A model generated the notes under the pieces. The model did not search any database and was not told the DNA's origin. It was given only the letters and a program-made list of their open reading frames with translations. Of a stretch of 64,000 nucleotides of DNA, positions 32,167-52,730 are shown piece by piece (the first letter of the stretch is position 1; every line of letters starts with the position of its first letter). Origin of the DNA: Candidatus Bathyarchaeota archaeon (GTDB taxonomy: Archaea > Thermoproteota > Bathyarchaeia > 40CM-2-53-6); assembly GCA_963833125.1 (NCBI GenBank), contig CAWHWX010000001.1, forward strand, positions 64,001 through 128,000. The letters run 5' to 3'. Both the position numbers and the translations under genes were made by a program.

Positions 32167-32259
32167 TAGTGCGCCTATCCCCATTCGAACCATAGTCGTT
32201 CGTCGCTCGAAAAGTGCGTGTGTATCTCTTGGTGCGCACACACACTTAGAACGAAGGAC
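32167..32259 (+). repeat. Family A element: tRNA-3'-like half-site plus full hairpin copy
   Basis: GTCGTTCGT..AAGTGCGTGTG-TATCTCTTGGTGCG-CACACACACTT..ACGAAGGAC at 32195-32259. Confidence 0.85.
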
Positions 32260-32308
32260 CGAAATGTCCAACTTGCAGTGAACTCAAAGGTAATCCCGTG
32301 TTCTTGTG

Positions 32309-33015
32309 TTGCCGCAATTCCGTTAATCGAGGACTTAACAACTGAGCCGATACCTCCAGGGTCGAACCTGCTCGTTGAATTTGACCCGGCCTCAGAATGG
32401 TACAATGCGGCAGTTACAATCACGGCAGGATGGTTAAGTTCAGGCGGAAGGGTACACTACAACGTAAACGTTCGACCCCCAGACACTGTCCGCTCACACC
32501 TGAAAAAACTCGGTTTGAATCCGGAGGATTTTGAACGAGAAGACAAGTTGAGAATATACGACTGGTACTCACTCACCCTAGGCCGCAGGTCTGTAGGTAA
32601 GGATCCGGTCACCTCGCTAAAAGTGCACGAATTAAGTCCCGATTATGCCAACTGGATGCGAAGCGATGAGCTGAGCGAAAACGAGACCACGCTGAGAATG
32701 ATCGAGAACGGCTCGACACTAGCCAGATACAATGATGAGAAAGCGTATGTTGAATTCATCTTGACGAGAGTATTTCCCCGCTCAACACTCTGGAAAGCGA
32801 TTCTGATCAGCTCACACGTGAAGGGCTTGCACAGCGATTGGGTCAATGGGGCATTGGAATCAGCAGCCGATGGCGTAATCGATTTCAAGCTAGACGAAAC
32901 TACTGACCCGGCGCAGAATCTCATTCGGATTAGGAATTTGAGGAATGTGGGCTTCGACGGAAGGTGGCACAAGCTAAAGACTTCTAAGAGTCACGAAGTC
33001 ACCTTGGTCAAGTAA
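32309..33015 (+). CDS. KaiC/RAD55-like RecA-fold protein with degenerate Walker A (paralogue 1)
   Basis: IPLIEDL...IPPGSNLLVEFDPAS.WY, ADGVIDFK, IRIRNLR; probable TTG 32309 with a 1-bp deletion. Confidence 0.8.
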
Positions 33016-33019
33016 TTTT

Positions 33020-33051
33020 GTGTGTGGGTCGGCTGGTGCGCACACACACTT
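33020..33051 (+). repeat. Family A repeat
   Basis: GTGTGTGGGTCGGCTGGTGCGCACACACACTT fills the gap between convergent stops. Confidence 0.9.
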
Positions 33052-33055
33052 GGAC

Positions 33056-33457
33056 CTACTTTCGTTCTAACAGTTCTATCCATATGCCGTTTGGGTCTTT
33101 GACGTAGGCTTCTTTCCATCCTACGTCGAAGCCAATTTGGTATGGTTCCACGACCACTTCGATGCCTTTCCGTTTCAGTTCTTTCACGCTAGCTTCCAGA
33201 TCTTGAACGTCGAAGGCAACGTGGTCGAGGTCTTCGCCGTTAACGTAATGCGAGTTGAATGGGCTCAGGTCTTCATAATGGTTGAGTTCTAGAAGTTGCT
33301 GTGAGTTTGGGCTCTTGAGTGTAACCACACTCCCTTTTGTTGGTGTCGTCTTCTGAAGCGGCTCCACGATAACCATGCCCAAGATGCCCGTGTAGAACTT
33401 CAGAGATTCTTCCATATTTTTCACTCGTATACCGGTGTAGATGAAACGAAAATCCAA
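33056..33457 (-). CDS. VOC/glyoxalase family protein
   Basis: IRVKNMEESLKFY, LELN, DHVAFDV.D, DPNGIWIEL. Confidence 0.9.
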   Translation of the reverse strand: MDFRFIYTGIRVKNMEESLKFYTGILGMVIVEPLQKTTPTKGSVVTLKSPNSQQLLELNHYEDLSPFNSHYVNGEDLDHVAFDVQDLEASVKELKRKGIEVVVEPYQIGFDVGWKEAYVKDPNGIWIELLERK

Positions 33458-33524
33458 ACTAATGCACCTGTCGTGATCTCTTCTTCGATGGAATGGGTCT
33501 TAAGATCATTGGGGGGTAGGTCTG

Positions 33525-33606
33525 GTGTGTGTATAATCTGGTGCGGACGCCGACAATCGGACCGGTCGTTAGTGTAGGTGTGCGCACCAAGAGATACATA
33601 CACGAC
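33525..33606. repeat. Family A inverted doublet
   Basis: GTGTGTGTATAATCTGGTGCG ... GTGTGCGCACCAAGAGATACATACAC. Confidence 0.85.
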
Positions 33607-33633
33607 AAATCTAGTTACGTAGTCACAGTAGCA

Positions 33634-34575
33634 TTAGTCTGTCCGTTTCGAGTTTACTATGCGATTTATGACCTTTTTCTTAAATCCCCCACGTTTTGTG
33701 TTGTCCGGCAAGGCTTGCTCTATTATAGAGCTGTAAAATCGCATGAACTTGTAACCAAAGCACTTCTTGATGCCCGTAAGTTCACTTTTGGTTCGCATAA
33801 GTTCGATCCTAAGAGCATCTCTCTCCTTCTCCAATTCGAAGTAGAGGTCCATGAGCGCCGCGCTTCCGCCACAAAACTTTCGCCTCACCAGACGCGCATC
33901 TTCCAACACCTCAGCATATCGCTCAACAGTAATCTGATGCCTGTGAATTCTACGCCAATAGGTTACCTTAGGAATATGAAGAATATCGCAACTGGTCTTT
34001 CCAATAAGCAATGCAAGCTGCATGTCTTCCGCGTATTTTATTGACGTATCTAATCCTTCAGACTGCAAATAGAATTCTTTCCTGAAAAATAGCTCCGCTG
34101 AACCTGGCCACCATCCTGAAATTATAGCATCAACTAATGTCTTCCCGAAAGGGAGAAATTCATTCGGCCCCTTATCGCCAGTTGAATCAACCCAGTTCGT
34201 CCAAACGTAACCAAGACGAGGATTATCTTCAAATGCTGGCATTACAGCGGAAAGCGAATCAGGCATAAGCTTATCGTCACTACCTAAACATGTTATTACA
34301 GGTCCACGTGCATGCTCAATGCCCACTGCAGTAGCCGCGGAGCAACCTTCATGCTTCACCTGAACTAACGCGATTCGATCATCTGACAATTTGGACTTGA
34401 CAACTTCTACTGTTCGATCAATTGAACCGTCGTCAACAACTAAAACATCCCAATCACTATAATCCTGCGCAATCACCGAATCAATGGCGTCCCCAACGAA
34501 ACGTTCACGATCGTAAACAGGAATCAGAACGGTAACATGCAAAACATAACCACCACACCGAAAGAACTCTGCCAC
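33634..34575 (-). CDS. Glycosyltransferase family 2 with C-terminal coiled coil
   Basis: VLIPVYD, VVDDGS, LGSDD, ED. Confidence 0.88.
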   Translation of the reverse strand: MAEFFRCGGYVLHVTVLIPVYDRERFVGDAIDSVIAQDYSDWDVLVVDDGSIDRTVEVVKSKLSDDRIALVQVKHEGCSAATAVGIEHARGPVITCLGSDDKLMPDSLSAVMPAFEDNPRLGYVWTNWVDSTGDKGPNEFLPFGKTLVDAIISGWWPGSAELFFRKEFYLQSEGLDTSIKYAEDMQLALLIGKTSCDILHIPKVTYWRRIHRHQITVERYAEVLEDARLVRRKFCGGSAALMDLYFELEKERDALRIELMRTKSELTGIKKCFGYKFMRFYSSIIEQALPDNTKRGGFKKKVINRIVNSKRTD

Positions 34576-34590
34576 GTAGTTACCGTGGTT

Positions 34591-35526
34591 CTACTCTGTT
34601 CGGTACGAATCTCTTATGCAATCCTTAACCTTTCTCTTGAGCCTTCCACGTCTCGTGCCGTCCGGAAGTGCTGCGTCGATTATGGGGCCATACAGTTGCA
34701 TGAACTTGTAGCCAAGGCACTTTTTGATGTCCGTAAGTTCACTTCTGGTTCGCATAAGTTCACTCGTGATGCCCGTAAGTTCACTCCTAAGTGTTCCTAT
34801 CTCCTTCTCCAATTCGCCAAAGTAGAGGTCTGCCAGTGCGGCACTTCTTACCATAAACCTTCGCCTTATCAGATGCACTGCTTTTATCTGCTCATCGTAT
34901 GAAAGCTCATTTTGAATTCTGTGAGGATGAATTCTACGCCAGTAGGTTACCTTAGAAATATGGAGTGTGTCGCAGCCGGTCTTGGCGATCAGTAGAGCTA
35001 ATTGCAAATCCTCACCATATTGTATCGATTGGTCTAATCTTTCGGATTGCATATAGAAGCCTTTTTTGTAGAATAGCTGTGCTGAAGCGCGCCACCATCC
35101 CGAGATTAAAGCCTCAAACAATGTCTTCCCGTCAGGAAGAAAATCACTCGTACCCTTATCGCCAGTTGAATCAACCCAGTTCGTCCAAACGTAACCAAGA
35201 CGAGGATTATCTTCAAATGCTGGCATTACAGCGGAAAGCGAATCAGGCATAAGCTTATCGTCACTACCTAAATGTGTCACTACAGGTCCGCCTGCGTGCT
35301 CTATACCCATTGCAATAGCTCCCGTAACACCCGAGTGCTTCATTTGAATTAGTTGAATCCGGTCATCTGACAGCCTTGACTTGACAACTTCCACTGTTCG
35401 ATCAGTTGAACCGTCGTCAACAACTAACAGGTCCCAGTCATGATAATCCTGGCCAATCACCGAGTCAATTGCGTCCCCGATGAAATATTCACGGTTGTAA
35501 ACAGGTATTAGGACAGTAACATGCAA
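34591..35526 (-). CDS. Glycosyltransferase family 2, tandem paralogue
   Basis: VLIPVYN, VVDDGSTD, LGSDD, GED. Confidence 0.88.
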   Translation of the reverse strand: MHVTVLIPVYNREYFIGDAIDSVIGQDYHDWDLLVVDDGSTDRTVEVVKSRLSDDRIQLIQMKHSGVTGAIAMGIEHAGGPVVTHLGSDDKLMPDSLSAVMPAFEDNPRLGYVWTNWVDSTGDKGTSDFLPDGKTLFEALISGWWRASAQLFYKKGFYMQSERLDQSIQYGEDLQLALLIAKTGCDTLHISKVTYWRRIHPHRIQNELSYDEQIKAVHLIRRRFMVRSAALADLYFGELEKEIGTLRSELTGITSELMRTRSELTDIKKCLGYKFMQLYGPIIDAALPDGTRRGRLKRKVKDCIRDSYRTE

Positions 35527-35595
35527 AGTGTAACCTCACACATTGATCCAAATTACATTTATGCTCTTCGGCAACATTACATAAATATTTTTTTT

Positions 35596-35710
35596 GGGGG
35601 GCCCGGTGGTGCACACATTTAACCACCACTGCCCAGCGTGCGCGTGTCATAAGTTGAAGCGTCGTCATCCTAAAAGTGTGCGTGGGTCTAGTGGTGCGCA
35701 CACACGCACT
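35596..35710 (+). repeat. Family A cluster (degenerate copy, tRNA-like half-site, full copy)
   Basis: GGTGGTGCACACA; GTCGTC..AAAAGTGTGCGTGGGTCTAGTGGTGCGCACACACGCACT at 35661-35710. Confidence 0.85.
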
Positions 35711-35743
35711 GAGAGAGAAAAAGCGAGCTGACCATCAATCCTT

Positions 35744-36442
35744 TTGGTGAGAGAGTCAATCAGGAATGTCACAAACTTGAAGTACAGTATTGTTCTCAGC
35801 ACGACCGGAACCCGCCTCACTCTCCAAGCATCCGCAAACAATTTCGAGCACTTCACACGAACAAGAAATGATACGGAATTAATCATAGGCACGAACAACC
35901 CCACCTTAGAACAATCATGGGTCACAAAGCCACGCAACGCAAAAATCGTTTGTCGGCCCGACCATCGGGTTTGTTGGAGTGACGCAATAGATGCCTCAAG
36001 AGGTGAATTTATCGTAAACGTGGACGATGATCTCAAACTCGCCAACGACTACCTAACCCGAGCTGACCACATCTTTACGGACCCGACGCTTCAAATGATT
36101 CAACCCACCCTACTAGACGCGGAGGGCTATGTTTGTTTGCGGAAGCATTATCGAAGTTACACCATAAGCGTATTCCGTCGCAACCTCATAGAAAAGTTAG
36201 GGATGGATTATGATGGACGAGGTTCACGCTGGCCCGAAAACAACATCCCCTTTGTCGAAGCGGCGTGGGAGAAGGCTTCCGTTGTAGTCGCCATGAAGAT
36301 GTACGCGGTTCACTACGGTTACCCTACACCCCACGGAGTAGATTCAACAATTGCTCCTTACGGCAGCCGCTTAGATTTCTTGGAAGAGTGGCGTAAAGAG
36401 AACAATTACGAACGTATACCACTTGAGACAATCCTGCCATGA
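35744..36442 (+). CDS. Divergent GT-A fold glycosyltransferase
   Basis: YSIVLST, ASRGEFIVNVDDD. Confidence 0.65.
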   Translation: MVRESIRNVTNLKYSIVLSTTGTRLTLQASANNFEHFTRTRNDTELIIGTNNPTLEQSWVTKPRNAKIVCRPDHRVCWSDAIDASRGEFIVNVDDDLKLANDYLTRADHIFTDPTLQMIQPTLLDAEGYVCLRKHYRSYTISVFRRNLIEKLGMDYDGRGSRWPENNIPFVEAAWEKASVVVAMKMYAVHYGYPTPHGVDSTIAPYGSRLDFLEEWRKENNYERIPLETILP

Positions 36443-36459
36443 AAATTCTTGTTCTAACA

Positions 36460-36564
36460 GTCGTTCGTCGTGAGAAAGTGTGTGGGTCGGCTGGTGCGGG
36501 CACAGGAATTTGAACCGTGGTTCGTTTGAATTTCTTGGGGGTGCGCAGTGATACCGCACGCACG
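36460..36564. repeat. Family A inverted doublet
   Basis: GTCGTTCGTCG..AAAGTGTGTGGGTCGGCTGGTGCGGGCAC ... GGTGCGCAGTGATACCGCACGCAC. Confidence 0.85.
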
Positions 36565-36608
36565 AAAACTACAAATCTGCTGTACTAGAGGAGACCCCGG
36601 TGTTCTGA

Positions 36609-37310
36609 TTGCCGAAGATGCCGTTAGTCGAGGACTTGATTAAGGGACCGGTTCCTCCGGGTTCTAATATTCTCGTTGAATTTGATCCAGCCTCCCAGTG
36701 GCTTAACGCATCGCTAACGATTGCTGCCGGCTGGGTGAAGGATGGAGGCAGCGTTAGCTACATTGCCAACTCCCAATCCCCAGACGACATTCGTTCACAC
36801 CTTCGAAAACTGGGCCTTGCTGTTGAGGAACTCGAGAGGACCGATCGGTTATGGATTACTGATCTATACAGTGCGTCGATAGGACAGAAATCCAAAGAAA
36901 GATTCGCGGTTGAATCGTTGAAGGTCGCGGACCTTAGCATTTGGATAGGGAGAGAGGCGATGGGTGATTCACCCGCCCCCGAATTTCTCGTAATAGCGGA
37001 TAACAATTCAATTCTCGATAGATTCAACGCCGAGAGGAATTGGGTCGAATTGTACCTCACCCGACCCATTCCAATGGCAAAGCCCAGACAAATAACCCAA
37101 CTAATAGCGTTCATGAGCGGAATTCACAGTACCTGGGCGTACAAGCAGCTCGAGGCTGCCGTTGATGGTGTCATCGATTTCAAAATTGATGAGGTAAACG
37201 GAGAACGCAAGACCTTCATGGGAATTCGGAACATGCGGAATGTTCATTTCAATTCGCGATGGTACTCATTGAAGATCGGAAAAGACTTCGAAGTCGCCTT
37301 GGAAAAGTGA
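36609..37310 (+). CDS. KaiC/RAD55-like protein with degenerate Walker A (paralogue 2)
   Basis: MPLVEDL..GPVPPGSNILVEFDPASQW, DGVIDFK, IRNMR. Confidence 0.8.
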   Translation: MPKMPLVEDLIKGPVPPGSNILVEFDPASQWLNASLTIAAGWVKDGGSVSYIANSQSPDDIRSHLRKLGLAVEELERTDRLWITDLYSASIGQKSKERFAVESLKVADLSIWIGREAMGDSPAPEFLVIADNNSILDRFNAERNWVELYLTRPIPMAKPRQITQLIAFMSGIHSTWAYKQLEAAVDGVIDFKIDEVNGERKTFMGIRNMRNVHFNSRWYSLKIGKDFEVALEK

Positions 37311-37325
37311 GTGCGTTTAGCAGGG

Positions 37326-37370
37326 CGTTCGTTTAGTGTGCGCACCAGCCGACCCACCGCACGCAACTTT
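37326..37370 (-). repeat. Family A repeat
   Basis: Reverse complement GTGGGTCGGCTGGTGCGCACACTAAACGAACG; core identical to the 33020 copy. Confidence 0.88.
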
Positions 37371-37407
37371 CTAACAACTCTAGGCGCAATGGGGGCGCAC
37401 TCTCAAT

Positions 37408-37779
37408 CTAGCGATTGCCCGTCATGCCATACCCACTATAGAGCATCAATACGCCCATCAACAGCATAACCGAACCCGAAAGCGTTGAACCTTGCATCAT
37501 CGAGAACACTTGCGCGAGCATAGCCACTCCTAAAACCAACATAATTAGACCGTAGAGCAACATTAGCATTCTAATCGTCGAGCGGTTCTTCATCATATGC
37601 GACGTGAGCAAATACAGGCCGGTCAACAGAACGATTAACCCCAGTGTCAGAAGGAAATAACCGCCCCACCTGGCAGTGGAAGAAACCATCATTCCCGCGG
37701 GTTGAAGAAGCACTAAGCCTGCGACTACGTCGACAAACCCTCCGATGATCCCTATCGCGGCCGAGTAGATTTGCTTCAA
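37408..37779 (-). CDS. Four-TM membrane protein
   Basis: Hydrophobic Gly/Met-rich helices. Confidence 0.7.
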   Translation of the reverse strand: MKQIYSAAIGIIGGFVDVVAGLVLLQPAGMMVSSTARWGGYFLLTLGLIVLLTGLYLLTSHMMKNRSTIRMLMLLYGLIMLVLGVAMLAQVFSMMQGSTLSGSVMLLMGVLMLYSGYGMTGNR

Positions 37780-37839
37780 GCCATTACCGCAACCCTATCC
37801 GAGACTCCCAGAAACCATCCATATACAAAAGCGATTTCT

Positions 37840-37929
37840 TGTGTGGGTCGAGTGGTGCGCACACACACTTTACGATGGGCCACTGGCGGCGGTTCGAATT
37901 AGGACGGTTGCACGAATAGATACACACGC
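37840..37929. repeat. Family A inverted doublet
   Basis: TGTGTGGGTCGAGTGGTGCGCACACACACTT ... GTTCGAATT...GCACGAATAGATACACAC. Confidence 0.85.
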
Positions 37930-38097
37930 CTGAACAACATGTCCGATTTCTGACGGCACCAGCAGAAGTGTTATTTGCATTTGTATCCAATCGGTTTAGA
38001 CATTATTGAACATACTATGCGTTGGTATTCGATAAATCCACAATCGCTCCTAGATCCAATCCTAAATGAACTGAGGCTGTTTGAGTTGCAGATTTCC

Positions 38098-39186
38098 ATG
38101 CACAAAGTCTTCGAGGATATTTGGAAAATCTATCCTGAAAATATGCTCAAGAACCGCACCTGGCACTGGTGGTGGTGGATTTACTTTTTCGAGAACCCTG
38201 ACGCTCCCGAATTCCCGAGACAGCTAATGGTCCTTTGGGGCACTAGGAATTGCAGAAAGGTTCGCGTGAATGATTTCTACTGGGAACCGACAATCCCAAT
38301 GGAGACTGACGGCAAGCACGCTAGTTTCGAATCGATGGTGGCCTCCTGGTATTATGACGGCAAAAAAATGCACGAACCGCTCCTCATTGATCACGGGAAG
38401 ACTGAGACCGAGTGGGATGACCACTATGGAAGAATCAGGATGGAAGGGCGCAAAGGGGTTTATTCATACGGCGGAAACCGCGAAAAATTCTGGCTGAAGA
38501 TAGACACGGACAGCGTAGGAATTGAACTGTCAATGGAGAAATGGAAAGACGCAATGGCGGAACTGGTGTCAACGGGAAGGAAATTCGTTGGAAACATGGG
38601 ATATTCGATGTTGAAATACAGGGGTCTGTCCTCCTCGGGAAGGATCCGATTAGGCGACACCGAAACCCCAGTCAAGGGTAGATCGTATTTCCAGAAGGTG
38701 CGAATATCTTCACTAACTCCTTGTTGGTATTGGGGCACAGTACAATGGGACAATGGAGCCTACCTACAATACTTTTTGCCCCACATCGGGGTCCCGATGC
38801 TCAGACATTCAATATCCCATGAGAGTACCATGGACTGGGGTGAGAAGATGATTTCAAAGACACTCAACTTCTACGACCCCGAGGAAGGGAAGGAGTATTC
38901 CATGACGGACGTTAAGTTAACCAAGCACTACGAAAATGACCTCCCCGTATTCAATGTGAGCGCAACCTCCGGTCAAAGCGAGCTCAGCATAGAGATGGCA
39001 ACATACGCGAGATGTTGCTGGAACATATCACAACCTCTCATCGGACCAATTTGGTCTGGGATCTTCTACAATGAGTACCCAGCAACGGTCAGGAATTTCA
39101 AATTCAAAAACAGCAATCGAAGCGCAAACAATGATGATTTTGGCAAAAGCTACTGCAACTGCGAGCACACATGGGGGCTGGTTTAG
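38098..39186 (+). CDS. Trp-rich hypothetical protein, possibly AttH/tocopherol-cyclase-like beta fold
   Basis: TWHWWWWIYFF, G.I..G.....V.GRSYFQK, WYWG; fold assignment is inference. Confidence 0.55.
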   Translation: MHKVFEDIWKIYPENMLKNRTWHWWWWIYFFENPDAPEFPRQLMVLWGTRNCRKVRVNDFYWEPTIPMETDGKHASFESMVASWYYDGKKMHEPLLIDHGKTETEWDDHYGRIRMEGRKGVYSYGGNREKFWLKIDTDSVGIELSMEKWKDAMAELVSTGRKFVGNMGYSMLKYRGLSSSGRIRLGDTETPVKGRSYFQKVRISSLTPCWYWGTVQWDNGAYLQYFLPHIGVPMLRHSISHESTMDWGEKMISKTLNFYDPEEGKEYSMTDVKLTKHYENDLPVFNVSATSGQSELSIEMATYARCCWNISQPLIGPIWSGIFYNEYPATVRNFKFKNSNRSANNDDFGKSYCNCEHTWGLV

Positions 39187-39226
39187 GAAAACTGTGACTA
39201 CGAGAGTTAGTCATTCGACTGCTTTC

Positions 39227-39300
39227 TGGGTGTGCACACACACTTTTCAAACGAACGACGTTCCGATTTTGACCGGCCGCACCATTGATACCACACACAA
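39227..39300. repeat. Family A inverted doublet
   Basis: GGTGTGCACACACACTTTTCAAACGAACGAC ... CGCACCATTGATACCACACAC. Confidence 0.85.
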
Positions 39301-39432
39301 GGGATACGCGTGAAAGTCGAGCTGGTGTGTAAAGTCCGGGATTCCACTGCGCCGTGACATTAACGAAGAATCATAACATAGAAATCGTACAGACGACAAG
39401 CATAGATTTGTTTTGCCAGAGGAGACCCGCGC

Positions 39433-40158
39433 TTGGCTACCGTTATGGTTCCCCCATTCTTGAAGGAACTAGTTCCCGGTGGGTTCGAATATGGTGCCAA
39501 TCTTCTTGTTGAATTTGACTCCGACTCCGTCTGGTACGAAACGTCGCTCACAATCGCGGCTGGCGCAATAAGAGCGGGGATAAAGATTGACTACCACAAT
39601 TTCCAGCACACTCCCGATGACATCAGAAAAGCCCTCGACCGACGAGGATTAGACGTGAAGAGGCTAGAAGATGAGGACATGCTTTGGATCGTTGATAGCT
39701 ACACAGTACAGACAGGAGTTGATAGCTCTAGAGACCGGTCGGATGTTACTGAAGTCTCCGTGAAGCTTTCGGATTGGAGCATCGCTCTGGCTAAGGATCT
39801 TAAGGCAGGCATCTCTGAAGCCATGAAAAAGCGCCTGCATATTGACGATAACACTGGTATCCTGCTTCAGTACAACGAGGAGAAGTCCATCATAGACTTC
39901 TGGCGTACCCGGTATATACCCTATTCGAGAGCACGCGAATGTGTCATGGTACAAGCACTCTTGAAGGGCGTGGCTTCCTCCTCATTCTACAAGCAGTACG
40001 AATCGTTATGTGACGGAATAATTGATTTCAAGAGCGAAGAACGAGAGAACGAAATTCAACATTACGTGAGAGTCAGAAGTCTTCGCGGCAGGGAATGCGA
40101 TTCACGGTGGAGGAAGCTCCGGTTGTCGGATAACGGCGAAGTCACACTATTCGAATAG
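39433..40158 (+). CDS. KaiC/RAD55-like protein with degenerate Walker A (paralogue 3, more divergent)
   Basis: LVPGGFEYGANLLVEFDSDS.WY, CDGIIDFK, VRVRSLRG. Confidence 0.8.
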   Translation: MATVMVPPFLKELVPGGFEYGANLLVEFDSDSVWYETSLTIAAGAIRAGIKIDYHNFQHTPDDIRKALDRRGLDVKRLEDEDMLWIVDSYTVQTGVDSSRDRSDVTEVSVKLSDWSIALAKDLKAGISEAMKKRLHIDDNTGILLQYNEEKSIIDFWRTRYIPYSRARECVMVQALLKGVASSSFYKQYESLCDGIIDFKSEERENEIQHYVRVRSLRGRECDSRWRKLRLSDNGEVTLFE

Positions 40159-40191
40159 AAAAGTCAGTGGGTCTCCTGGTGCGCACACACA
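40159..40191 (+). repeat. Family A repeat
   Basis: AAAAGTCAGTGGGTCTCCTGGTGCGCACACACA directly after the stop. Confidence 0.85.
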
Positions 40192-40579
40192 GAAGTCCGG
40201 TGCCACAAAGCTCTCCCACTGAAACCTTGGTGCCCTTTGGAACTGTTTTATTTCATACCCATTTTTCTTAGGCGATGAGTGCTGCATTCGCGAATATTCA
40301 GACAAAGCCGTAGTTCAAAGCAAGGACATTCTTGCGATGTACTTGTCTTTCTATCCTTATATTGAACCAAGGCGAGAATGCACAAAGTTAGTTGTCATGA
40401 ACGAGAGGGACGAGTCATTTGCAACGATTGACCGCATGTTCTTCTTCTTGTTGCAACTGACCGAAGTCGCCGGAGTCTGAGGAAACAACCGAAATCTCGT
40501 TCCGACGGTAAGTGAAAGACGGAACCAGTCTTCGGCTTCATCTTGGACCCGCGACGTGGAAGATAAGGAGAAAAAATCG

Positions 40580-41809: not shown

Positions 41810-41923
41810 AGCTGCGCATTCATGAAATATTGTAGCGGCTAGTATCCTATACTTCTATACTACCGTAAAATCAGCAAACACATAACAAACGTGACGCCAC
41901 GTCGGGTTTTCCGCGAATCTGGG

Positions 41924-42292
41924 CTAGTCAGTGGGACTCAACTGGAGCGCTCCCTTCCTGACAATGATCTCATCCCCACTTCGTATCCATAGAATTCGTT
42001 CCTCTTCGTGGGGTGTGGATTTCAGTTTCAAAAATTCCCTAATATGTTTGGGAACGGCCGCCCTTCCACCTCTACTGAGGATTGTTTTTCTGAAACTCGA
42101 TTGGAGCGTTCCTCTTCTGACGATCACCTCATCGGCCTTTTGTATCCATAGCAGTTTTTCCCTCTTTTGGGGTGTGTATCTCAGTTTCAATACTTTCATT
42201 ACCTGTTTAGGAACGGTCGTCCTTCCGCCTCTGCTGAGAATTGATATTCCGAGAGGAAGTTCGTTTGCCAAATCTGCACGCAGACACTCCAA
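41924..42292 (-). CDS. Tandem AbrB/MraZ-like DNA-binding protein
   Basis: Internal duplication ILSRGGR..VPK....LKL..TP...E..LWI...DE.IVR.G. Confidence 0.7.
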   Translation of the reverse strand: MECLRADLANELPLGISILSRGGRTTVPKQVMKVLKLRYTPQKREKLLWIQKADEVIVRRGTLQSSFRKTILSRGGRAAVPKHIREFLKLKSTPHEEERILWIRSGDEIIVRKGALQLSPTD

Positions 42293-42397
42293 ATCACCCG
42301 ACTCTTATTAAGCATAAACGAGTTTGGAGCTAGTTACAAATGTGACCGTCCACAAACCCACGGTTTCAACACCACGCAATTTATCAGCTCGATTTCT

Positions 42398-42481
42398 TGC
42401 GTGTACGCACACCACCCACTTGCAACATGATAAATCGATGAAGATCTCCAGTGGTAGTGCGCACCCACACCAAAACGGACG
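42398..42481. repeat. Degenerate family A copies
   Basis: GCGTGTACGCACACCACCCAC; GTGGTAGTGCGCACCCACACCAAAACGGACG. Confidence 0.55.
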
Positions 42482-42556
42482 CTACATCGCCGGCTTACTG
42501 TGTTGATGGGAACGACAAATGGCGAAGCGGAGTGGGCAATTAAAGCCGGGAACGCT

Positions 42557-43956: not shown

Positions 43957-44058
43957 CTTTCTGCCGATATATTCTTGCCGCACTCGTCTAAGCCTCTCCC
44001 CATTGGTCCGTAGCGTCCTCTAAAATAAATTACACTGAGAGATACTTCGCTTTCTTGA

Positions 44059-44074
44059 TGCGCACCAATAGACC
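44059..44074 (-). repeat. Family A core
   Basis: Reverse complement GGTCTATTGGTGCGCA. Confidence 0.6.
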
Positions 44075-44280
44075 TCGCCGGATGCGATTGCAGATTATTC
44101 CCAATAGACTGCAACGTGACTCCATAGGCCACGATCGGCTGCGTGACTCGAAGGAAAATCCTCGCAGACATCGTCGGGAGAGTCACTCTCGATTAGAGCG
44201 AGCTCAGTTCGTTCTTAACTTAAATATGGGTCGTTACGAGTTGTCGCAAAGGTATTTCCGCGTGACGCAAAGAAACACAT

Positions 44281-45856: not shown

Positions 45857-45980
45857 GACGAAACATCGTCACGACACTCACCTTCTCCAAGTCAAGAGAA
45901 ATAGTGGCCATGTTCCATCTCAGTAATGCTACTTCATGCAAGGTTACCTCGATATTAGCCGGACGCGACAACGCCATTTG

Positions 45981-46889
45981 ATGAAAGCAATGGTCAAGAG
46001 AACTGAAGGCAAAGTCAGGGTACTGGGCTTCAAGCTCTTCTACAAGGTCTTCAGTCCCGAGAGTTACAATAGCACGCTCGTCTGTTTGCATGGTGGACCT
46101 GGAGCGACTCACGACTATCTCTTGCCGCTTGCGGATCTTGCAGACTTCGGATTTCGTGTCGTATTCTATGATCAGCTAGGCTGTGGAAGCTCGGAACTCC
46201 CCAAGAACCCTGCCCTCTACATAGTCGAGAGAGCAGTCGAAGAATTGGAAGCTTTCAGACGGACGTTGAAACTCGGACGGATACACCTAATGGGCTCTAG
46301 CTACGGCGGAATGCTCGCCCTTGCATACGCACTCAAATATCAAAGAAATCTCAACAGCATAATCACAACTGGAGGTCTCGCAAGCGTCCCTCTCACTGTT
46401 GCAGAGATGCAGAGGCTAAAGTCTCAGTTGCCGCTGAAGATTAGAAGGATACTCGAAAAGTACGAAGCGCTAGGAGAGTACGAAAATCCCGCATATGAAA
46501 AAGCGGTCATGTTCTTCTACCGGAAACATCTCCTCAGGCTTCGAAAGTGGCCGCCTGAGCAGAATTACACGATGGCCCACCTCAGCAAGCCCGTCTACTT
46601 CACAATGAACGGACCAAACGAGTTCACAATAATCGGAAACACAAGGTATTGGGACGTGACAGGTCAACTTCACACGATACGAGTACCCACGTTAGTTACT
46701 GGCGGGAAGTACGATGAGGTGACTCCCAAGGTCGCTCGAAGCATTCACAGGGAAATTAAAGGGTCGAAACTTGTCACGTTTCGAAAGAGCTCACATCTTC
46801 CCATGTGGGAGGAGAGGGAAAAATACATCCAAACTCTCAGAAGGTTCTTGTTTTCAGTCGACTCTGGACTTGCAATGAGACAAGCATAG
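45981..46889 (+). CDS. pip: Proline iminopeptidase (alpha/beta hydrolase, tricorn factor F1-like)
   Basis: LHGGPG, YDQLGCG.S, GSSYGG, MNGPNEF, SSH. Confidence 0.9.
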   Translation: MKAMVKRTEGKVRVLGFKLFYKVFSPESYNSTLVCLHGGPGATHDYLLPLADLADFGFRVVFYDQLGCGSSELPKNPALYIVERAVEELEAFRRTLKLGRIHLMGSSYGGMLALAYALKYQRNLNSIITTGGLASVPLTVAEMQRLKSQLPLKIRRILEKYEALGEYENPAYEKAVMFFYRKHLLRLRKWPPEQNYTMAHLSKPVYFTMNGPNEFTIIGNTRYWDVTGQLHTIRVPTLVTGGKYDEVTPKVARSIHREIKGSKLVTFRKSSHLPMWEEREKYIQTLRRFLFSVDSGLAMRQA

Positions 46890-46916
46890 AGTTAGTGATT
46901 GAAGGTTCCCTTACGG

Positions 46917-47736
46917 TTATGCTTCAGGTTTTGATAGCCAATATCGAGCGATTTCTTGCGCCGTCGCTATCCAGACTCCTTCATGGGACTTGACATGCGT
47001 TATTATTTTTTCAAGCGTTTTGCTTGGAGCTGGCCTACCTGTAACCAGCGGGTGCATTGTTAGGCAATAGAATTTTCCTTCCTCATATAGGACATCGAAT
47101 TCATCTCGCCAGAGCTGGAACACTTCTTCCGGCGAGTATCCCCTCTCCGTAGTTATCGTAATCGTCGAGGGTAACGGCGCTGGGAAGTTCAACAATATGT
47201 TTCCCATCGTCGAACTTGTGAATGTAGGGTAGATCGTTGTCGAGTGCATCACCCCTCCAGATGAACCCGCCCATCTCATGGAGCAGGTTGATGGTGCTCT
47301 TGCTAGGATTCCAATCCGGAGTCCTGTGTCCGACCGGCCTTTTCCCTAGAATCTTCTGAACAATGTCAACCGTCTTTTGAATATCCATTTTCTCCTCTTC
47401 CTCTTTCATGTTGTAGTATGGGCGATGATCCCATCCGTGAACGGCGACCTCATGGCCCTTGTCTCGTATCGCCTTCACAACATCAGGCCTCTTCTCTGCG
47501 GTTCTCCCAACCATGCAGAATGTCCCCTTCACGTTCTGTCGATCGAGGATTCTCAAGACGCGCCACGTCCCGGCGTTTGTATCATAGTAGCCCTGACTAA
47601 CGTAGAACATTTTGTCCGGTCCGAATGAGTCAATCATTCCCGATTCGTCATCGTTGTCAAAAGAGAATACAACCGCGCATCTAATACCTGGAGGCCATAT
47701 TTTTTCGCTAGACAAACTCTTATCGCATCCACACAA
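46917..47736 (-). CDS. Polysaccharide deacetylase (CE4); frameshift near 47140
   Basis: SFDND, HEVAVHGWDH, G.R.P, then W..EFD...TMHP..TGRP in the second frame. Confidence 0.85.
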
Positions 47737-47869
47737 TTTTCGTGAGAATCAATCTTCGCAGTTGACCCTGACAGAATATTTGAGTTTTTTCATCACGCTG
47801 TGGGAGTGCTCGAGTCGTTCTTTGAAGGGTTTTTGCGGGCGACGGCGTCGAATGGCTCAATCATCGTTT

Positions 47870-47905
47870 CTGTGTGGTGGGGGGTATGCTGGTGCGCACA
47901 CACAG
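47870..47905 (+). repeat. Family A repeat
   Basis: CTGTGTG GTGGGGGGTATGCTGGTGCG CACACACAG. Confidence 0.8.
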
Positions 47906-48191
47906 CTTCTTGGGCATCCATCTTAGCCCTTTCGTGACAACATATCATAATGTGAAGCGTTCCTAGTGATACGTGGAAAGGGCGGCTTTTCGATCTTTCT
48001 TCTTCTCGCGTGCTTTCGACTCCCTCTTATCTCTAGCAGCCGTCCACGCTTTCTTAGATGCCCTACTCTGCTTTGCCATACATTAATCACCTCTCAGACA
48101 CAACATAGTACTCACACTCGAATAAGCAACTTCCGACGCTTTCGTAAAACTGGCCTTTATCTGCAACTTACCAGCTGTTCAATTACGAAGC

Positions 48192-48731
48192 ATGAAGGTG
48201 AAGGTCCTCGTGGAACCTATCCTGGCGACTTCGACTGTATACATTTTCGGCGGAGGCCATATCGCTGTGCATCTGGCTCAGTTCGCAAAGGCGCTTGACT
48301 TCGCAGTGATAGTGGTTGACGACCGAGAAGAGTTCGCTAATGGAAAGCGCTTTCCCATGGCTGACGAGGTGAAGTCTGGCGATTTCGTTGAAGTAATCAA
48401 GTCCATTGATTTCGCTGCAGAGGATTGCGTCGTCATAGTGACTCACGAGCACCAGCATGATGAAGTCGTCTTGAAAGAATGCCTCTCCAAGAAGAGACTA
48501 CCCGGCTACATAGGCATGATTGGGCATAAAGAGAAAGTCACAGCAAACTTCTCTCACCTGAAAGAACAGGGCATCACAGAAGAGCTGTTGGCAAGAGTAA
48601 ACGCGCCGATAGGGTTGGACATAGGATCCCACACGCCGGCCGAAATAGCGCTGAGCATAATGGCAGAAATTATCGGCCACAAGCATGGAAAGAACAATAA
48701 AGAAGACTACGGGCCGATGAGAAATCTTTAG
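48192..48731 (+). CDS. XdhC family protein, C-terminal Rossmann domain only
   Basis: FGGGHIA, DDR, YIGMIG, PIGLDIG..TPAEIA.SI; lacks the CoxI N-terminal domain. Confidence 0.8.
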   Translation: MKVKVLVEPILATSTVYIFGGGHIAVHLAQFAKALDFAVIVVDDREEFANGKRFPMADEVKSGDFVEVIKSIDFAAEDCVVIVTHEHQHDEVVLKECLSKKRLPGYIGMIGHKEKVTANFSHLKEQGITEELLARVNAPIGLDIGSHTPAEIALSIMAEIIGHKHGKNNKEDYGPMRNL

Positions 48732-48735
48732 GAGT

Positions 48736-48951
48736 TTACTGCGGCGTTGTCTCTTTTGCCCCATCCCAAACCCAATTACAAGTGCAGTCTTTCTCAATGC
48801 AACGCTTTCTTACCGGAGAGCTATTCGCGAAATGATTGATGACGGGGTGCCCGCAATTCTTGCAGCTCACATATTCGAGGGATTGGGTTTGAACGGTAGT
48901 TTGAGGAAGCATGAACGGAGAGCTTGCAGGAGGGGTTAGATTAATTCGCAC
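48736..48951 (-). CDS. Small putative Zn-binding protein
   Basis: CKNCGH...H.........C....C.C. Confidence 0.5.
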   Translation of the reverse strand: MRINLTPPASSPFMLPQTTVQTQSLEYVSCKNCGHPVINHFANSSPVRKRCIEKDCTCNWVWDGAKETTPQ

Positions 48952-49151
48952 AACATTTACGCCATAATTCAGCCGCGGAAATTCGTCATGATTAACAAGC
49001 CGGTATATTCCCGAACCGCCATGTCAACTGGAAAACTCAGACACGCCCGCGTTCTCGTGTCTTTCGGTTTCTCCCGTCATCCCAACAAACAACCAAACAG
49101 GCTTTCGTAAGCTAGAATTTGGAATCGAGAGGCAAAGAGACAGTCAGTTGG

Positions 49152-49806
49152 TCAACTTTTCTTTCGCAGAGTAACGAAGAAGAGGTTTCGAGGAAGTTCT
49201 CCTTCCTGGAATTGCTGGACATCCATTATCTCGTATCCTTCTGCCAAAGATTCCACTTGTTTTTCATCAAAGAAACGAACGACGAACCCATCAGTTTCGT
49301 ACATATCCTCACCCCTAGCGATTCCTCTCGCGTAATGCGGATCCTGTTTTGTTCTGACGGTGAAAATGTTCAGGCCGTTAGCTTTGAGAATTCGTTTCAC
49401 CTCTCGTGAAAGAGATTCGAGCTGATCCACTGTTAAGGCCATAGAGTACAACATGTGAGAGTAGCAACCGTCCATAGATTTGCTTGGAAAGGGAAGTGGA
49501 GGTTCGCACGTCATGACACATGGAAATTACTGAATTGGAAAGTCCTAACGCTTGTGCCGTTCTCTTCAATGCGTCTATTGCAGTCTTACTGTAATCTATC
49601 GCATGCACTCTAACACCATGTAGGGCGAAAAATAACGTGTCTCTACCGTGACCACATCCGAGTTCAAGGATGTCGCGGATGTCGTTTGCCTTGAATTGTT
49701 GTAGTGCCCTTTGTGCGGCGAAGCTTGGAAGTTTGCCGTACAGAGTTGGTTCTTTTGAATAGGTGCTTTCCCAATGCTCAACTTGTCTGTTCAGCAGATC
49801 CTTCAT
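49152..49806 (-). CDS. Class I SAM-dependent methyltransferase; frameshift near 49495
   Basis: ILELGCGHGRD motif I, then PLPF...D..YS and RILK.NG in the second frame. Confidence 0.85.
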
Positions 49807-49918
49807 TTTACCAACGCCTGCTTTCAGTTTTCTTTGCTACCTGCGTATTTTCGATAAGCTTGGAGAAATAGAACGATCCCCAGAGTCGTTGAATGTGACC
49901 GCTTCAGAAGTGTGTTTC

Positions 49919-50617
49919 TTACAATCCTGTTAGTCCGGAGTTTACTTTGATGTTCTCTTCGTAGTGATCGGGTTTAGGCGGCCATCCTTCTTTCATGTAT
50001 TGCAGGAAATCTTCTCTTGCCTTCAGTTTCAGTGCCGGGTTGGTTCGACGTTCGAGTCCAATTGTGGATGAAGCATCGCCTGACACGAAGTGGGTCTTCC
50101 CCACGTGGCCAGGCATCACCTCGACGTGATCTTCGAGCTTAAGCAGCTTGTTGAAGATCGAATCATAGAGTTGGTTCGGGTCGCCTCTGCCGAGGTCGGT
50201 TCGCCCCACATCCCCGACTAATAGTGTATCACCCGTCAGTACCGACTTGTCCTCAACGAGAAGACTGACGTGTTCAGGCGCGTGGCCCGGCGTATGAAGG
50301 ACCCGGAACTTCAAGTTGGCTATATGGTATTCTTGCTCTGTTAGAGGAACGAACGGAAACTTGACCGGGCTTGTCTCATACATGTAGATTGGGCAATCAT
50401 TGAGTTTCTGTATCTCACGGGTGCCGGAGATGTGATCAGCGTGGATGTGCGTATCGATAACGCCTACGATTTTGCCCTCTTCTTGCTGGGCTTTCTTCAT
50501 GAACCGTTCAACATCAATCAACGGGTCGACTAGAACGAATTCTTTCCCAGAACCGGCTAAGTAAGTGCAGCATCCAGAATCTTGGGCAATCATCTGGTGG
50601 AGCAGGCGATTCACCAA
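49919..50617 (-). CDS. MBL-fold hydrolase (ETHE1/persulfide dioxygenase-like)
   Basis: DTHIHADH, TPGH, TGD.L, GRTD, PGH. Confidence 0.88.
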   Translation of the reverse strand: MVNRLLHQMIAQDSGCCTYLAGSGKEFVLVDPLIDVERFMKKAQQEEGKIVGVIDTHIHADHISGTREIQKLNDCPIYMYETSPVKFPFVPLTEQEYHIANLKFRVLHTPGHAPEHVSLLVEDKSVLTGDTLLVGDVGRTDLGRGDPNQLYDSIFNKLLKLEDHVEVMPGHVGKTHFVSGDASSTIGLERRTNPALKLKAREDFLQYMKEGWPPKPDHYEENIKVNSGLTGL

Positions 50618-50633
50618 CTCATCCAGTGATTAG

Positions 50634-51600
50634 CTAGTGGCGTCGGTAGGGTTGTCCGGTGAAGGTGAATGTTTTGAATAATTCGTATACTTTGTCTGGT
50701 ATGCCTTCGACGACGTTGAGGCCTATGGCTCGGGCTACGTCGAGTGTTATGGGTGTGGCGTGGGACATGTAGCCGCGGGCGAGGAAGTCGGCGACTCGTT
50801 CCGCTTGTTCCTTATCCATCTTTCCCTGCAGGAGCCACATTACGAATGCTTTGGCGTTTTCTATTTCGAGGTTGGCGACATCTGACATTATGACCATGCG
50901 GTCGGTTATGTTCTGAATTGGTTTTGTTTTCGCTAGGGTGGTGATTGAGCCAGCGGGGTACATGCCGTCTGGTGTTGGAATCTGTGGGTCCACGGGGCCG
51001 AGAACGCTGTACTTCTCCATCCGTATCTCACCCGCTGCTAAACTCATTAGAGAACCTCCGGACATCGCGTAGAATGGTACCATGACGGTAACTTTCGATG
51101 GATGGAATTTGATCGCCATAGCCATCATTTGAGCCGCCAACGCGTAGCCTCCGGGAGTGTGGATGATGAAATCTATGGGCGTGTCCGGTGGAATCTTACG
51201 CATCTTCTGAAGAATACCCTCAGTGTCCTCAATTCCAATTTCGGGATCTGCGTCAGGCTCGGTCCAGAGCTCCTTTTTGTGAATCATCGTGAGAACTCTG
51301 GTTCCACGCTCCTTCTCCAGATCTTCGATGATGCTTTGGCGCCACGCTAGAATCCCTGCCTTGGTCGTAGGCCGCTTGAATTCTGTCTCTGCTGGGGTTT
51401 CCTTGGGGCTTAGCGCTCCCTCCCTTTCCTCTGAGGATTCAGTTTCCTCTTCCTTCTCGTCGTCTTCTTCTTCCTCGTCCTTGGATCTCTGTTTTCCATT
51501 GGGTGGGTTAATTTTGCGAAGCACGTAGAGGAGTGCGGTTGAGTTAATGGCAGTAATAGCGAGTAATCCCTAGTCCGAGGAAGAGTTCCGCGTCATCCAT
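50634..51600 (-). CDS. SDH-family ClpP-class serine protease with N-terminal TM and acidic linker; frameshift near 51569
   Basis: HTPGG, AMSGGS, LGPVDPQ, SH..PI; N-terminus MDDAELFLGL/GLLAITAINSTALLYVLR restored by removing one G. Confidence 0.85.
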
Positions 51601-51618
51601 CCTAGATCCCTTACTCCT

Positions 51619-52554
51619 TTACTGGTATTGTTTACCCGGCCTGAGGCCGCCTGTGAATTCGATGGTTTCGAAGAGTTGGTGAACTTTCTCAGGCACACCC
51701 TCTACAACATTCAACCCGATAGCGCGTGCCACATCCAACGTGATCGGTGTACTACTCGACATAAACCCGCCAACCAGGAAGTTGGCTACCTGTGTCGCTT
51801 GTTCTTCGTTCATATGATCGATCAAGAGCCATTTCACAAACTCTTTTGCATTTTCTTCCTCCATGCGTGCAGATTCGGCGAGGAGGATGGTGCGGTCGGA
51901 GATGGTTTCGATTGGTTTACGCTTCAGGATACCCATTACCAGGGTCGCTGGCATATCATCAATGAGCGGCTCTAGGGGGGCTAGGATGCTGCATTTCTCC
52001 ATCATGATCTCGTCCGCGGCCAGGACGACGTATGTGCCGTCGGACATGGCGTAGAACGGAACCATAACCGTCACCTTCGCCTGATGATACCTCAACGCCA
52101 TCGAGATCAGGTCAGCAGCAAAAGTCAGCCCGCCTTCTGTGTGTACGATGAAGTCTATCGGCTTATCCGGCGGAGTCTCTCGCACTTGTTGGAGGATTAA
52201 TTCAGAATCCTCAAACCCGATCTCGGGCTCATCATCACTCGCACTCCAAGGCTCCTTCCGGTGAATAAGGGTTAGAACCCTCGACCCACGCTCCTCCTCC
52301 AACTCATGAACCAACTGAGCCCTCCGAGAGAGTATCTCTTCTTTCGAGGGGGTCCTCTCGGTTTCACCTTCAGCCTCATCCTCGTCCTCGTCTTCATCGT
52401 CTTCCTCGTCCTCTTCATCACTCCCCTTCGTTATGGGGGTGGGTGTTTGGGGGATCTGCCAGAAACGGTGTATCACAAAGAGATTGGTCAATGAACTAAG
52501 AGAAGCCACTACCACGATCGCTATGGCAAGGAGTAGGTCCAACTCTTGCATCAT
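51619..52554 (-). CDS. SDH-family paralogue, probably catalytically inactive
   Basis: HTEGG, AMSDGT, LAPLEPL, SSSTPI in place of the canonical motifs. Confidence 0.8.
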   Translation of the reverse strand: MMQELDLLLAIAIVVVASLSSLTNLFVIHRFWQIPQTPTPITKGSDEEDEEDDEDEDEDEAEGETERTPSKEEILSRRAQLVHELEEERGSRVLTLIHRKEPWSASDDEPEIGFEDSELILQQVRETPPDKPIDFIVHTEGGLTFAADLISMALRYHQAKVTVMVPFYAMSDGTYVVLAADEIMMEKCSILAPLEPLIDDMPATLVMGILKRKPIETISDRTILLAESARMEEENAKEFVKWLLIDHMNEEQATQVANFLVGGFMSSSTPITLDVARAIGLNVVEGVPEKVHQLFETIEFTGGLRPGKQYQ

Positions 52555-52660
52555 GCTTCACCTGTAACCACGTCACAAAATCTAGGTGAGTGTAGTAGTT
52601 GGAGTCTAAAGGTTTTCGTGTATCGAGGACTAGATACCTGCTGGAGAACCACGACTATTC

Positions 52661-52730
52661 AGTGTGGTGCACACGCACAGAATCCGGGAGGGGTCAAATT
52701 TGAGTGCTCGCACCATCAGACCAACACACC
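52661..52730. repeat. Family A inverted doublet
   Basis: GTGTGGTGCACACGCACAG ... GGTCAAATTTGAGTGCTCGCACCATCAGACCAACACACC. Confidence 0.8.

Follow-up and report, generated by a model that had tools for sequence, protein, structure and literature searches.

tRNA 3'-end-like repeat units at the borders of shuffled gene modules in a Bathyarchaeia genome: candidate attachment-site derivatives

The window considered here is a stretch of 64,000 nucleotides from a Candidatus Bathyarchaeota archaeon (assembly GCA_963833125.1, contig CAWHWX010000001.1, positions 64,001 to 128,000), for which an initial annotation described seven 24-nt sites that copy the register of a tRNA 3' end from the T loop to the terminal CCA. 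These sites are parts of a larger intergenic repeat, and gene modules bordered by this repeat have been shuffled between related genomes. The reading we favour, with slightly better than even confidence, is that the sites are akin to the attachment (att) sites of integrating elements, descend from the 3' ends of tRNA genes and mark the limits of shuffled cassettes. It must be noted that all gene calls used below are crude open reading frames (ORFs), that the relatives are metagenome-assembled genomes (MAGs) and that the genome of the window is 88% complete.

Register and anatomy of the repeat

All seven sites were found at the coordinates and on the strands first reported for them, by pattern matching as well as by inspection of the intergenic sequence (Table 1). 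By itself, the inner 20-nt pattern YCRAH-N11-GCAC shows only weak enrichment: the window has 11 matches where 5.94 are expected, and 4 of 100 shuffles reach 11. Genome-wide (3.07 Mb), TYCRAHT and CGCACCA occur within 30 nt of each other in 39 pairs, 28 of which have a gap of exactly 9 nt, and the same pairing in the reversed genome gives one pair in total. At loci from other genomes the gap is 9 nt in 20 of 20 pairs, one site being counted twice in two overlapping loci. The fixed T-loop-to-CCA register is strongly non-random and, because the 9-nt gap prevails in both sets, the variable spacing that was to speak against it is not what is seen.

The nucleotides between the two motifs had been described as hypervariable, with position 61 never C and positions 62-69 different in every copy. 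The first statement is true of the seven window sites (G, G, T, T, T, T, T). The second holds inside the window but is overstated beyond it: the consensus over 35 distinct non-tRNA copies has T61 in 28, G64 in 23, G67 in 30 and C68 in 25. The 9-nt middle shares 3.71 of 9 identities with the T-stem/acceptor sequence of tRNA-Gly, against 2.62 in 2000 within-site shuffles (standard deviation 0.2, maximum 3.43). Furthermore, the middles of three units upstream of genes like K4, one of the KaiC-like genes discussed below, are nearly alike (TTGAGTGCT, TTGGTTGCT, TTGGGTGCT). The proposal of a hypervariable crossover spacer between two binding arms is not supported by these observations, the middle being partly conserved, weakly tRNA-Gly-like and near-constant before K4-like genes. 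Nor does homology between genomes break in the middle; it ends downstream, at or after CGCACCA and the trailer that follows. By its sequence, the middle looks like decayed stem rather than a designed spacer.

The sites had been attributed to the 3' end of a tRNA that begins with GCG and ends with CGC-A-CCA, and resident genes with such ends uphold this. Among the 28 strict gap-9 matches are five Leu/Ser-type and four Gly-type tRNA ends. Five intron-rich class-II genes (Leu/Ser-type) have ends of the form ...CCCCGCACCA, reading GTTCGAATCCCCTCCCCCGCACCA or a near variant; of the five, ARAGORN labels one as Ser and does not detect the rest. The Gly-like tRNA at C16:463649-463744 ends in GTCCGAATCCCGGCGGCCGCACCA; it matches the Rfam tRNA model with 48 bits and carries UCC (Gly) in the anticodon loop according to the Rfam alignment, while ARAGORN labels it Ala. 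Gene copies on contigs C6, C18 and C29 have the first 15 nt and the last 16 nt of the C16 tRNA and an intact T arm, and we read them, by eye and not from the output of any tool, as a putative multi-intron tRNA-Gly. The C18 gene is directly followed by a unit trailer and linker, then by another unit and then by a KaiC-like gene. Trailers come in two subtypes, TAGACCC-like and GATACC-like, which correspond to the sequence after Gly-type and Leu-type genes. Short tRNA-Leu 3' fragments are present beside unit clusters, and site 6 shares up to 11 contiguous nt with the Gly-type genes. Sequence in common with the 3' part of a resident tRNA, which is looked for in an att site, is present as GTTCRAAT and CGCACCA at the tRNA register. 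A same-strand copy, GTCCGATTTTGAACGGCCGCACCA, lies at 449.2 kb of C16, the C16 tRNA being at 463.7 kb; in the window the orientations are mixed. Taken together, the 3' end of a tRNA gene starting with GCG is the ancestor or the model of the sites.

Several introns at unusual positions are seen in the tRNA genes C18:125838-125997, C16:463649-463744, C5:76246-76379 and others. Since ARAGORN reports only 7 tRNAs in the 3.07 Mb and the intron-rich genes are also missed at the Rfam gathering threshold, standard tools evidently annotate the tRNAs of this lineage very incompletely. Fragmented tRNA genes that escape the usual finders hide relationships between tRNAs and repeats in the lineage.

In such a lineage, whose tRNA genes are heavily broken up, rich in introns and for the most part overlooked by ARAGORN and Rfam, an exact G53-to-A76 register with an encoded CCA could also betray functional tRNA-like RNA pieces, that is, 3' halves of split tRNAs or tRNA-mimic processing signals. 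We hold this to be very improbable. When the copies are tested as tRNA genes, position 61 does not pair with G53 (C61 is replaced by T in 28 of 35), the 5 nt upstream are not complementary, and the complementary 5' strand of T stem and acceptor is absent upstream in the sequences inspected. ARAGORN finds no tRNA gene in the window and Rfam gives no match in 28-58 kb at E <= 1. Finally, some copies run with the genes and others against them.

When the seven regions are aligned and the intergenic sequence is inspected, the 24-mers prove to be parts of a ~60-nt intergenic unit. In it, the tRNA-like 24-mer is followed by a trailer (NNN-GAYMC-CACACAC), then by a T-run and finally by a GACGACGAACGACG-like linker. 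The best-conserved piece of the unit is CGCACCA with its trailer, often with GTGTGTG on the other side. These form a quasi-palindromic box of ~30 nt that reads TGTGTGTGGGTC-NNN-TGGTGCG-CACACAC on the opposite strand, and what the initial annotation took for a CGCACCA arm is therefore the edge of this box. A position weight matrix (PWM) for the box matches the genome 78 times and its reversed sequence not once; 17 of the matches lie in the window, between 32.2 and 61.4 kb. A-runs and T-runs border many boxes. Some boxes are largely or fully complementary to each other: box 1 is 96% complementary to box 4 over 24 nt, and box 7, which shares its central GGC with boxes 2 and 6, is 100% complementary to box 2 over 22 nt. 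In three boxes (window 60668-60690, C1:352820 and C16:447246) the CACACAC tract is replaced by a G/C-only extension (...TGGTGCGCCGCCCCCGCC).

The repeat is widespread among relatives. Within the genus, 21 of the 22 other genomes carry the 14-mer TGGTGCGCACACAC, which has 19 copies in the window's genome. A second genus has it in 9 of 10 genomes, a third in 2 of 22, and two further genera in 1 of 4 between them. As a control, the reversed 14-mer is absent from all 59 genomes.

Module borders and integrase loci

That the sites bound gene modules which move is borne out by comparison with relatives. The closest genome, G063, is collinear with the backbone of the window (Table 1), and the islands between the backbone segments differ. 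The interval 29.8-42.4 kb has no synteny in any of the 22 other genomes of the genus, where it finds matches gene by gene and scattered. At island 2, both genomes have a box, and homology between them stops directly behind its CACAC tract, which in the window means at 52678, after the CACACGCAC tract. A block at G063:C1:1330 kb matches the module with two glycosyltransferase (GT2) genes (33583-35698) at 89% identity, and in either genome the module has units on both sides. The block with a gene for a 169-aa protein (60691-61389) is 96% identical to G063:C2:524354-525052, where it is box-flanked too but has other neighbours; high identity extends from just past the trailer to the GTGTG of the next box. 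Nine blocks that follow one another at G063:C2:517.9-529.7 kb are dispersed in the window's genome, where the best homologues lie at nine places distributed over five contigs, and four of the nine are separated by boxes in G063. A DEAD-helicase module is 94-95% identical to its counterparts in G058, G060 and G062, which indicates recent transfer since the backbone genes of G062 are only ~70-75% identical. Because homology between genomes breaks at or just right of CGCACCA and not in the 9-nt middle, we infer that the crossover is placed there.

A 955-nt block without a box (23245-24199) is 97% identical to G063:C1:434609-435563, far from the syntenic place, and may be another recently moved module. 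Just past the DEAD-helicase module, a 126-aa ORF contains two tandem copies (74% identical) of a 158-159-nt repeat at 41936-42252.

Searches of viral contigs provide a link to integrases. A scan with the bare 24-mer pattern was unspecific (at least 119 matches) because any tRNA end matches it, and was set aside; a scan with CGCACCA-NNN-GACCCACACAC gave 4 matches, of which 2 are full units (~50% G+C). In G067, a 51.7-kb viral contig with an HK97-gp10-like tail gene, 273 nt separate a full unit from the start of a tyrosine integrase gene (PF00589, 37.1 bits against a cut-off of 27.1). On the far side of the unit is a host-like gene whose product is 59% identical to one of the window's genome. 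This arrangement has the layout of a provirus-host junction. The provirus record G068 has two units near its end and no Pfam integrase in its first 10 kb.

Homologues of the G067 integrase are found at 17 loci in 10 of the 23 genomes of the genus. Six of these loci are beside matching tRNA ends, three just downstream of a tRNA-Gly end ...GGCCGCACCA and three next to a tRNA-Leu end ...CCCCGCACCA; at one more, the nearest unit is 1.3 kb away. The helicase module of G061 begins ~140 nt past a tRNA-Gly gene of the ...GGCCGCACCA type. The suggestion that the sites are tRNA-derived att sites linked to an integrase thus stands in part: the G067 gene and the six loci by matching tRNAs are in its favour, and no integrase adjoins the sites of the window. 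Neither an integrase nor a tRNA gene, which were predicted at the island ends, is present in the window or on its contig. Two integrase clusters in the window's genome (C16:0.5-13.5 kb and C28) were considered and rejected, their scores being only generic Xer-like and no units lying nearby. The former comprises at least four, perhaps six, Xer-like tyrosine recombinase genes on one strand at the contig start (C16:556-13451).

These data led to the following model. The unit would be a copy of the T-loop-to-CCA end of tRNA genes that encode CCA, either Gly-like (GCGGCCG...CGGCCGC-A-CCA) or Leu-like (...CCCCGC-A-CCA). Tyrosine integrases of the G067-type family would use the very 3' end of CGCACCA-terminated tRNA genes as their docking site, and each integration would leave behind an att copy composed of an element-borne tRNA-like arm, the common CGCACCA and the trailer. 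Later integrations would target earlier att copies, so that arrays of small modules separated by sites would build up. Recombination among the sites, presumably by the same integrase family, would then move and invert modules, with exchange within and between species as a consequence. The integrase would act in trans, none being encoded beside the arrays in the window's genome. Units and boxes would represent att-type junctions, probably still usable, and the site system may be active at present.

A more ambitious form of the model, which we put forward tentatively and with more doubt than belief, is an integron-like cassette exchange in this Bathyarchaeia family. It would combine a ~30-60-nt tRNA 3'-end mimic plus trailer with virus-type tyrosine integrases acting in trans, and tRNA-Gly and tRNA-Leu would serve as primary docking points. 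Single genes would be captured, reordered, inverted and passed between species at the sites.

Several observations weigh against an origin of the sites by integration. No PF00589 integrase is encoded on the contig of the window, none of the 12 PF00589 matches elsewhere in the genome is next to a unit, and the 101 ORFs of 12 other unit clusters contain no recombinase or transposase domain. Ten of the 17 integrase loci have neither a tRNA end nor a unit within 1.5 kb, and these include the three non-pseudogene matches most similar to the G067 enzyme. G063, G061 and G062 have no homologue of that enzyme at E <= 1e-8 despite their 13-22 copies of the 14-mer. The orientation of boxes in the window is mixed, while simple serial integration predicts direct repeats. 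Bare units arranged head to tail with a period of ~61 nt, as found at four other places in the genome (C1:321.6 kb, C32, C9 and C39), are not an expected product of integration. In the 169-aa module the inner 14 nt of one box are inverted between the two genomes; this flip of a box interior between orthologues may be an ordinary small hairpin-loop inversion. Some module borders, namely those of the DEAD helicase and both ends of island 1, have no box. 

A comparison of the array border in G063:C2 with C12 of the window's genome gave no clean empty site. At box edges, contigs from four DNA runs had loose ends and short-sided joints (sides of 22-56 nt); these represent other repeat copies in related organisms and speak neither for nor against recombination.

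Window map, neighbouring genes and other explanations

Table 1. Sites, boxes, modules, KaiC-like genes and backbone segments of the window. Sites are the 24-nt tRNA-like stretches; "inner pattern" stands for YCRAH-N11-GCAC; K1-K4 are KaiC-like genes.
Feature	Position	Strand	Remarks
Site 1	32167-32190	(-)	Inner pattern at 32169-32188; read letter by letter; second unit of a tandem pair; degenerate end CGCACTA, decayed trailer
Box 1	32215-32247	(+)	GTGTG..TATC-TCT-TGGTGCG-CACACAC; PWM 37.9 bits; upstream of K1
Run of box-delimited modules	32302-40158	.	K1, glyoxalase, two GT2 genes, 232-aa ORF, K2, 123-aa ORF, 403-aa ORF, K3
K1	32302-33015		
Box 2	33019-33051	(+)	PWM 47.9 bits; fills 40-nt gap between convergent K1 and glyoxalase genes
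Composite	33524-33604	(-)	Box 4 (33572-33604), short linker, site 2; CGCACCA + trailer = box 3 (33524-33556)
Site 2	33539-33562	(-)	Inner pattern at 33541-33560; read letter by letter
Composite	35636-35709	(-)	Box 5 (35677-35709), linker, site 3
Site 3	35636-35659	(-)	Inner pattern at 35638-35657; end CGCACGC
Composite	36477-36570	(-)	Upstream of K2; degenerate box (~36540-36570), linker, site 4; CGCACCA + trailer = box 6 (36477-36509)
Site 4	36492-36515	(-)	Inner pattern at 36494-36513
K2	36609-37310		
Box 7	37330-37362	(-)	Between convergent K2 and 123-aa ORF
Composite	37838-37930	(+)	Box 8 (37838-37870), linker, site 5, trailer; 45 nt before 403-aa ORF
Site 5	37892-37915	(+)	Inner pattern at 37894-37913; end GCACGA
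Composite	39225-39305	(+)	Degenerate box, TTTTC-AAACGAACGACG linker, site 6; trailer = box 9 (39267-39299)
Site 6	39261-39284	(+)	Inner pattern at 39263-39282; acceptor strand CGGCCGC-A-CCA of the Gly-like tRNA genes kept
K3	39433-40158		
Box 10	40162-40194	(+)	4 nt past K3 stop; K3 orthologue of G063 has a box at the equivalent place
Box 11	47875-47907	(+)	Left edge of 304-nt block, 92% identical to G063:C2:522193-522496
Composite	52660-52730	(+)	Upstream of K4; degenerate box at edge of conserved backbone, site 7; trailer = box 12 (52698-52730)
Site 7	52692-52715	(+)	Inner pattern at 52694-52713
K4	52775-53491		
Box 13	53505-53537	(-)	14 nt past K4 stop
Box 14	55467-55499	(-)	Linker + GTAATTTGAAC arm on left
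Box 15	57887-57919	(+)	PWM match
Cassette	60681-61415	(+)	Box 16 (60681-60713) and box 17 (61383-61415) around 169-aa gene
Backbone	2.7-25.6 kb		Synteny with G063:C1, 495-521.8 kb
Backbone	48.7-52.7 kb		Synteny with G063:C1, 521.9-525.8 kb
Backbone	61.5-64 kb		Synteny with G063:C1, 541.2-543.7 kb

The boxes are mostly intergenic. Their midpoints fall inside a crude ORF in 27 of 78 cases, though the caller marks 86% of the genome as coding. When only ORFs of at least 90 aa are considered, 12 of 77 boxes overlap an ORF end, by up to 113 nt, and the remainder are between ORFs. Convergent, divergent and tandem gaps contain 16, 24 and 34 of the 77, near the background proportions (633, 622 and 1963 gaps). 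Such a distribution would also suit a selfish or structural repeat similar to the repetitive extragenic palindromes (REP) and bacterial interspersed mosaic elements (BIME) or to miniature inverted-repeat transposable elements (MITE), in which case the modules would be shuffled by homologous recombination and the likeness to tRNA would reflect the ultimate origin only. Both orientations, composites of box, linker and box, bare tandem units and the absence of a nearby recombinase agree with this, as do the flips of the box loop between orthologues, which resemble small hairpin inversions. We nevertheless regard it as rather unlikely. The Y1 (RAYT/IS200) transposase, PF01797, has no match in the genome, within its 88% completeness. 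Unit-only insertion with target duplication was not found. The hairpins of 12 boxes range from -7 to -18 kcal/mol and are no more stable than shuffles in nine (z -0.64 to +1.11), z being <= -1.7 in the other three; in the absence of any general excess stability, the reading of the box as a hairpin or terminator was abandoned. Nor does a mobile or structural repeat account for the exactness of the tRNA register, for a T loop and a CGCACCA that are so strictly conserved, or for the integrase genes by a unit and by matching tRNAs.

A different explanation is suggested by the genes around the boxes, among which functions in detoxification and stress abound: glyoxalases, metallo-beta-lactamase fold proteins, catalase-peroxidase, DinB, GNAT, EamA and HxlR. 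Five of the seven sites lie 45-150 nt upstream of a co-oriented gene, A-runs or T-runs stand beside many boxes, and a paralogue of the TATA-binding protein (TBP) is encoded inside one unit cluster (C32:24744-25331). The box might accordingly be a regulatory element (operator, promoter or terminator) of a stress and detoxification regulon, recognised by a DNA-binding regulator or by a special pair of TBP and transcription factor B (TFB). This is improbable in our opinion. There is no positional bias, boxes between convergent genes (16 of 77) occurring at the background rate, and one box takes up all of the 40 nt that separate two stop codons. By our own tally, 10 of the cores in the window are directed at a gene start and 8 are not, and with neither position nor orientation biased the box was rejected as a promoter. 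Excess hairpin stability is lacking, and regulation does not explain why homology between genomes breaks at boxes.

The neighbours of the boxes are diverse: 78 of 104 box-adjacent ORFs are singletons. Enrichment is seen for one family alone, that of KaiC-like proteins which have lost the Walker A motif. Its members have a KaiC/RecA fold and ~235 aa, with the Walker A loop replaced (...GSNILVEFDPASQW...). The genome has 21 copies (K1-K4 and 17 others), several of them broken, and 12 of the 21 adjoin a box; counts across the genus range from 0 to 28. We considered whether these proteins are required machinery and rejected the idea: in the second genus the 14-mer reaches 35 copies per genome and the family gives 0-2 matches, and genomes of the third have 2-6 such genes with boxes nearly absent. 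Because box-rich genomes can be without the family and vice versa, it is cargo and not machinery.

Contigs with KaiC-like homologues flanked by the same boxes and units occur in the record DATKOK01, titled as a Methylomirabilota bacterium; they are probably Bathyarchaeia DNA binned into a bacterial MAG. Outside the window, C1:169.6-174.1 kb has five near-identical coding repeats with GGTGCGCAC, apparently within a very large repetitive protein gene, which are unrelated to the boxes.

Relation to known systems

Partial tRNA copies are textbook scars of integration. Among archaeal elements, those of the pTN3 type in Thermococcales have borders marked by a partial tRNA 3' copy and a tyrosine integrase adjoining the tRNA, and tRNA-Leu and tRNA-Gly genes lie at breakpoints of integrase-driven rearrangements in archaea, according to the portion of the account of Cossu et al. 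(2017, PMC5495485) available to us. As far as that portion goes, tRNA 3' copies at borders and tyrosine integrases beside tRNA genes are common to both cases. Unlike the pTN3-type sites, those described here number dozens of copies per genome, have both orientations and mostly lie at a great distance from any tRNA or integrase. They stand between single-gene modules instead of bounding one large element, and retain only the T loop and the last 7 nt of the tRNA together with a conserved trailer outside it.

Short extragenic quasi-palindromes in both orientations, forming mosaics with linker motifs, are characteristic of REP/BIME sequences, which are associated with the RAYT transposase. The boxes share the quasi-palindromes, the two orientations and the mosaics with linkers; in contrast, they have no RAYT, no excess stability and an apparent origin in tRNA ends.

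Clusters of integron cassettes lacking an integrase (CALINs) have been reported in archaeal MAGs, including Thermoproteota, in an account whose available part does not mention tRNA (Ghaly et al. 2022, PMC9668308). To the extent of that part, the two systems are alike in their mostly single-gene cassettes, diverse cargo, repeated site and exchange between species, in sites that are more similar within a lineage, and in arrays that mostly lack an adjoining recombinase. The present sites differ from those of CALINs in being conserved in sequence and apparently tRNA-derived, and genes as well as sites have both orientations. The ends of attC sites, R'' and R', carry the motif GTTRRRY/RYYYAAC. No such ends were seen here on comparison by eye. 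Neither an IntI-type integrase nor attI was found, the integrase-like ORFs scoring far below the cut-offs for integron integrases.

In the dif modules of Acinetobacter plasmids, small gene modules are flanked by sites. Our modules are similar in this respect, and in both cases the recombinase is encoded elsewhere. The Xer/dif site has an 11-6-11 architecture (Cortez et al. 2010, PMC2958812, from the part accessible to us). By our own parsing, the ~28-nt box can be divided likewise into 11-nt arms and a 6-nt centre (GTGTGTGGGTC / NNNTGG / TGCGCACACAC), the first three letters of the centre being variable. However, relative to what that part describes, the arms agree here at outer, not inner, positions, and dif is unique per chromosome and near the terminus, whereas the box has 78 copies over many contigs.

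A literature search retrieved no published account of tRNA-derived repeats in Bathyarchaeia, which is no proof of their absence from print. To our knowledge, a high-copy, two-genus-wide site derived from tRNA ends that partitions islands into exchangeable single-gene cassettes is new, as a variant of the systems above. An integration scar would have turned into a high-copy site conserved across two genera, with modules 94-96% identical on backbones of 70-91% identity. If the sites still recombined, they would be an archaeal counterpart of integrons or of dif modules. They would then explain, in a concrete way that is open to test, how accessory genomes become mosaic in an uncultured lineage that is abundant in soils and sediments, and would link virus integrases to the shuffling of host genes.

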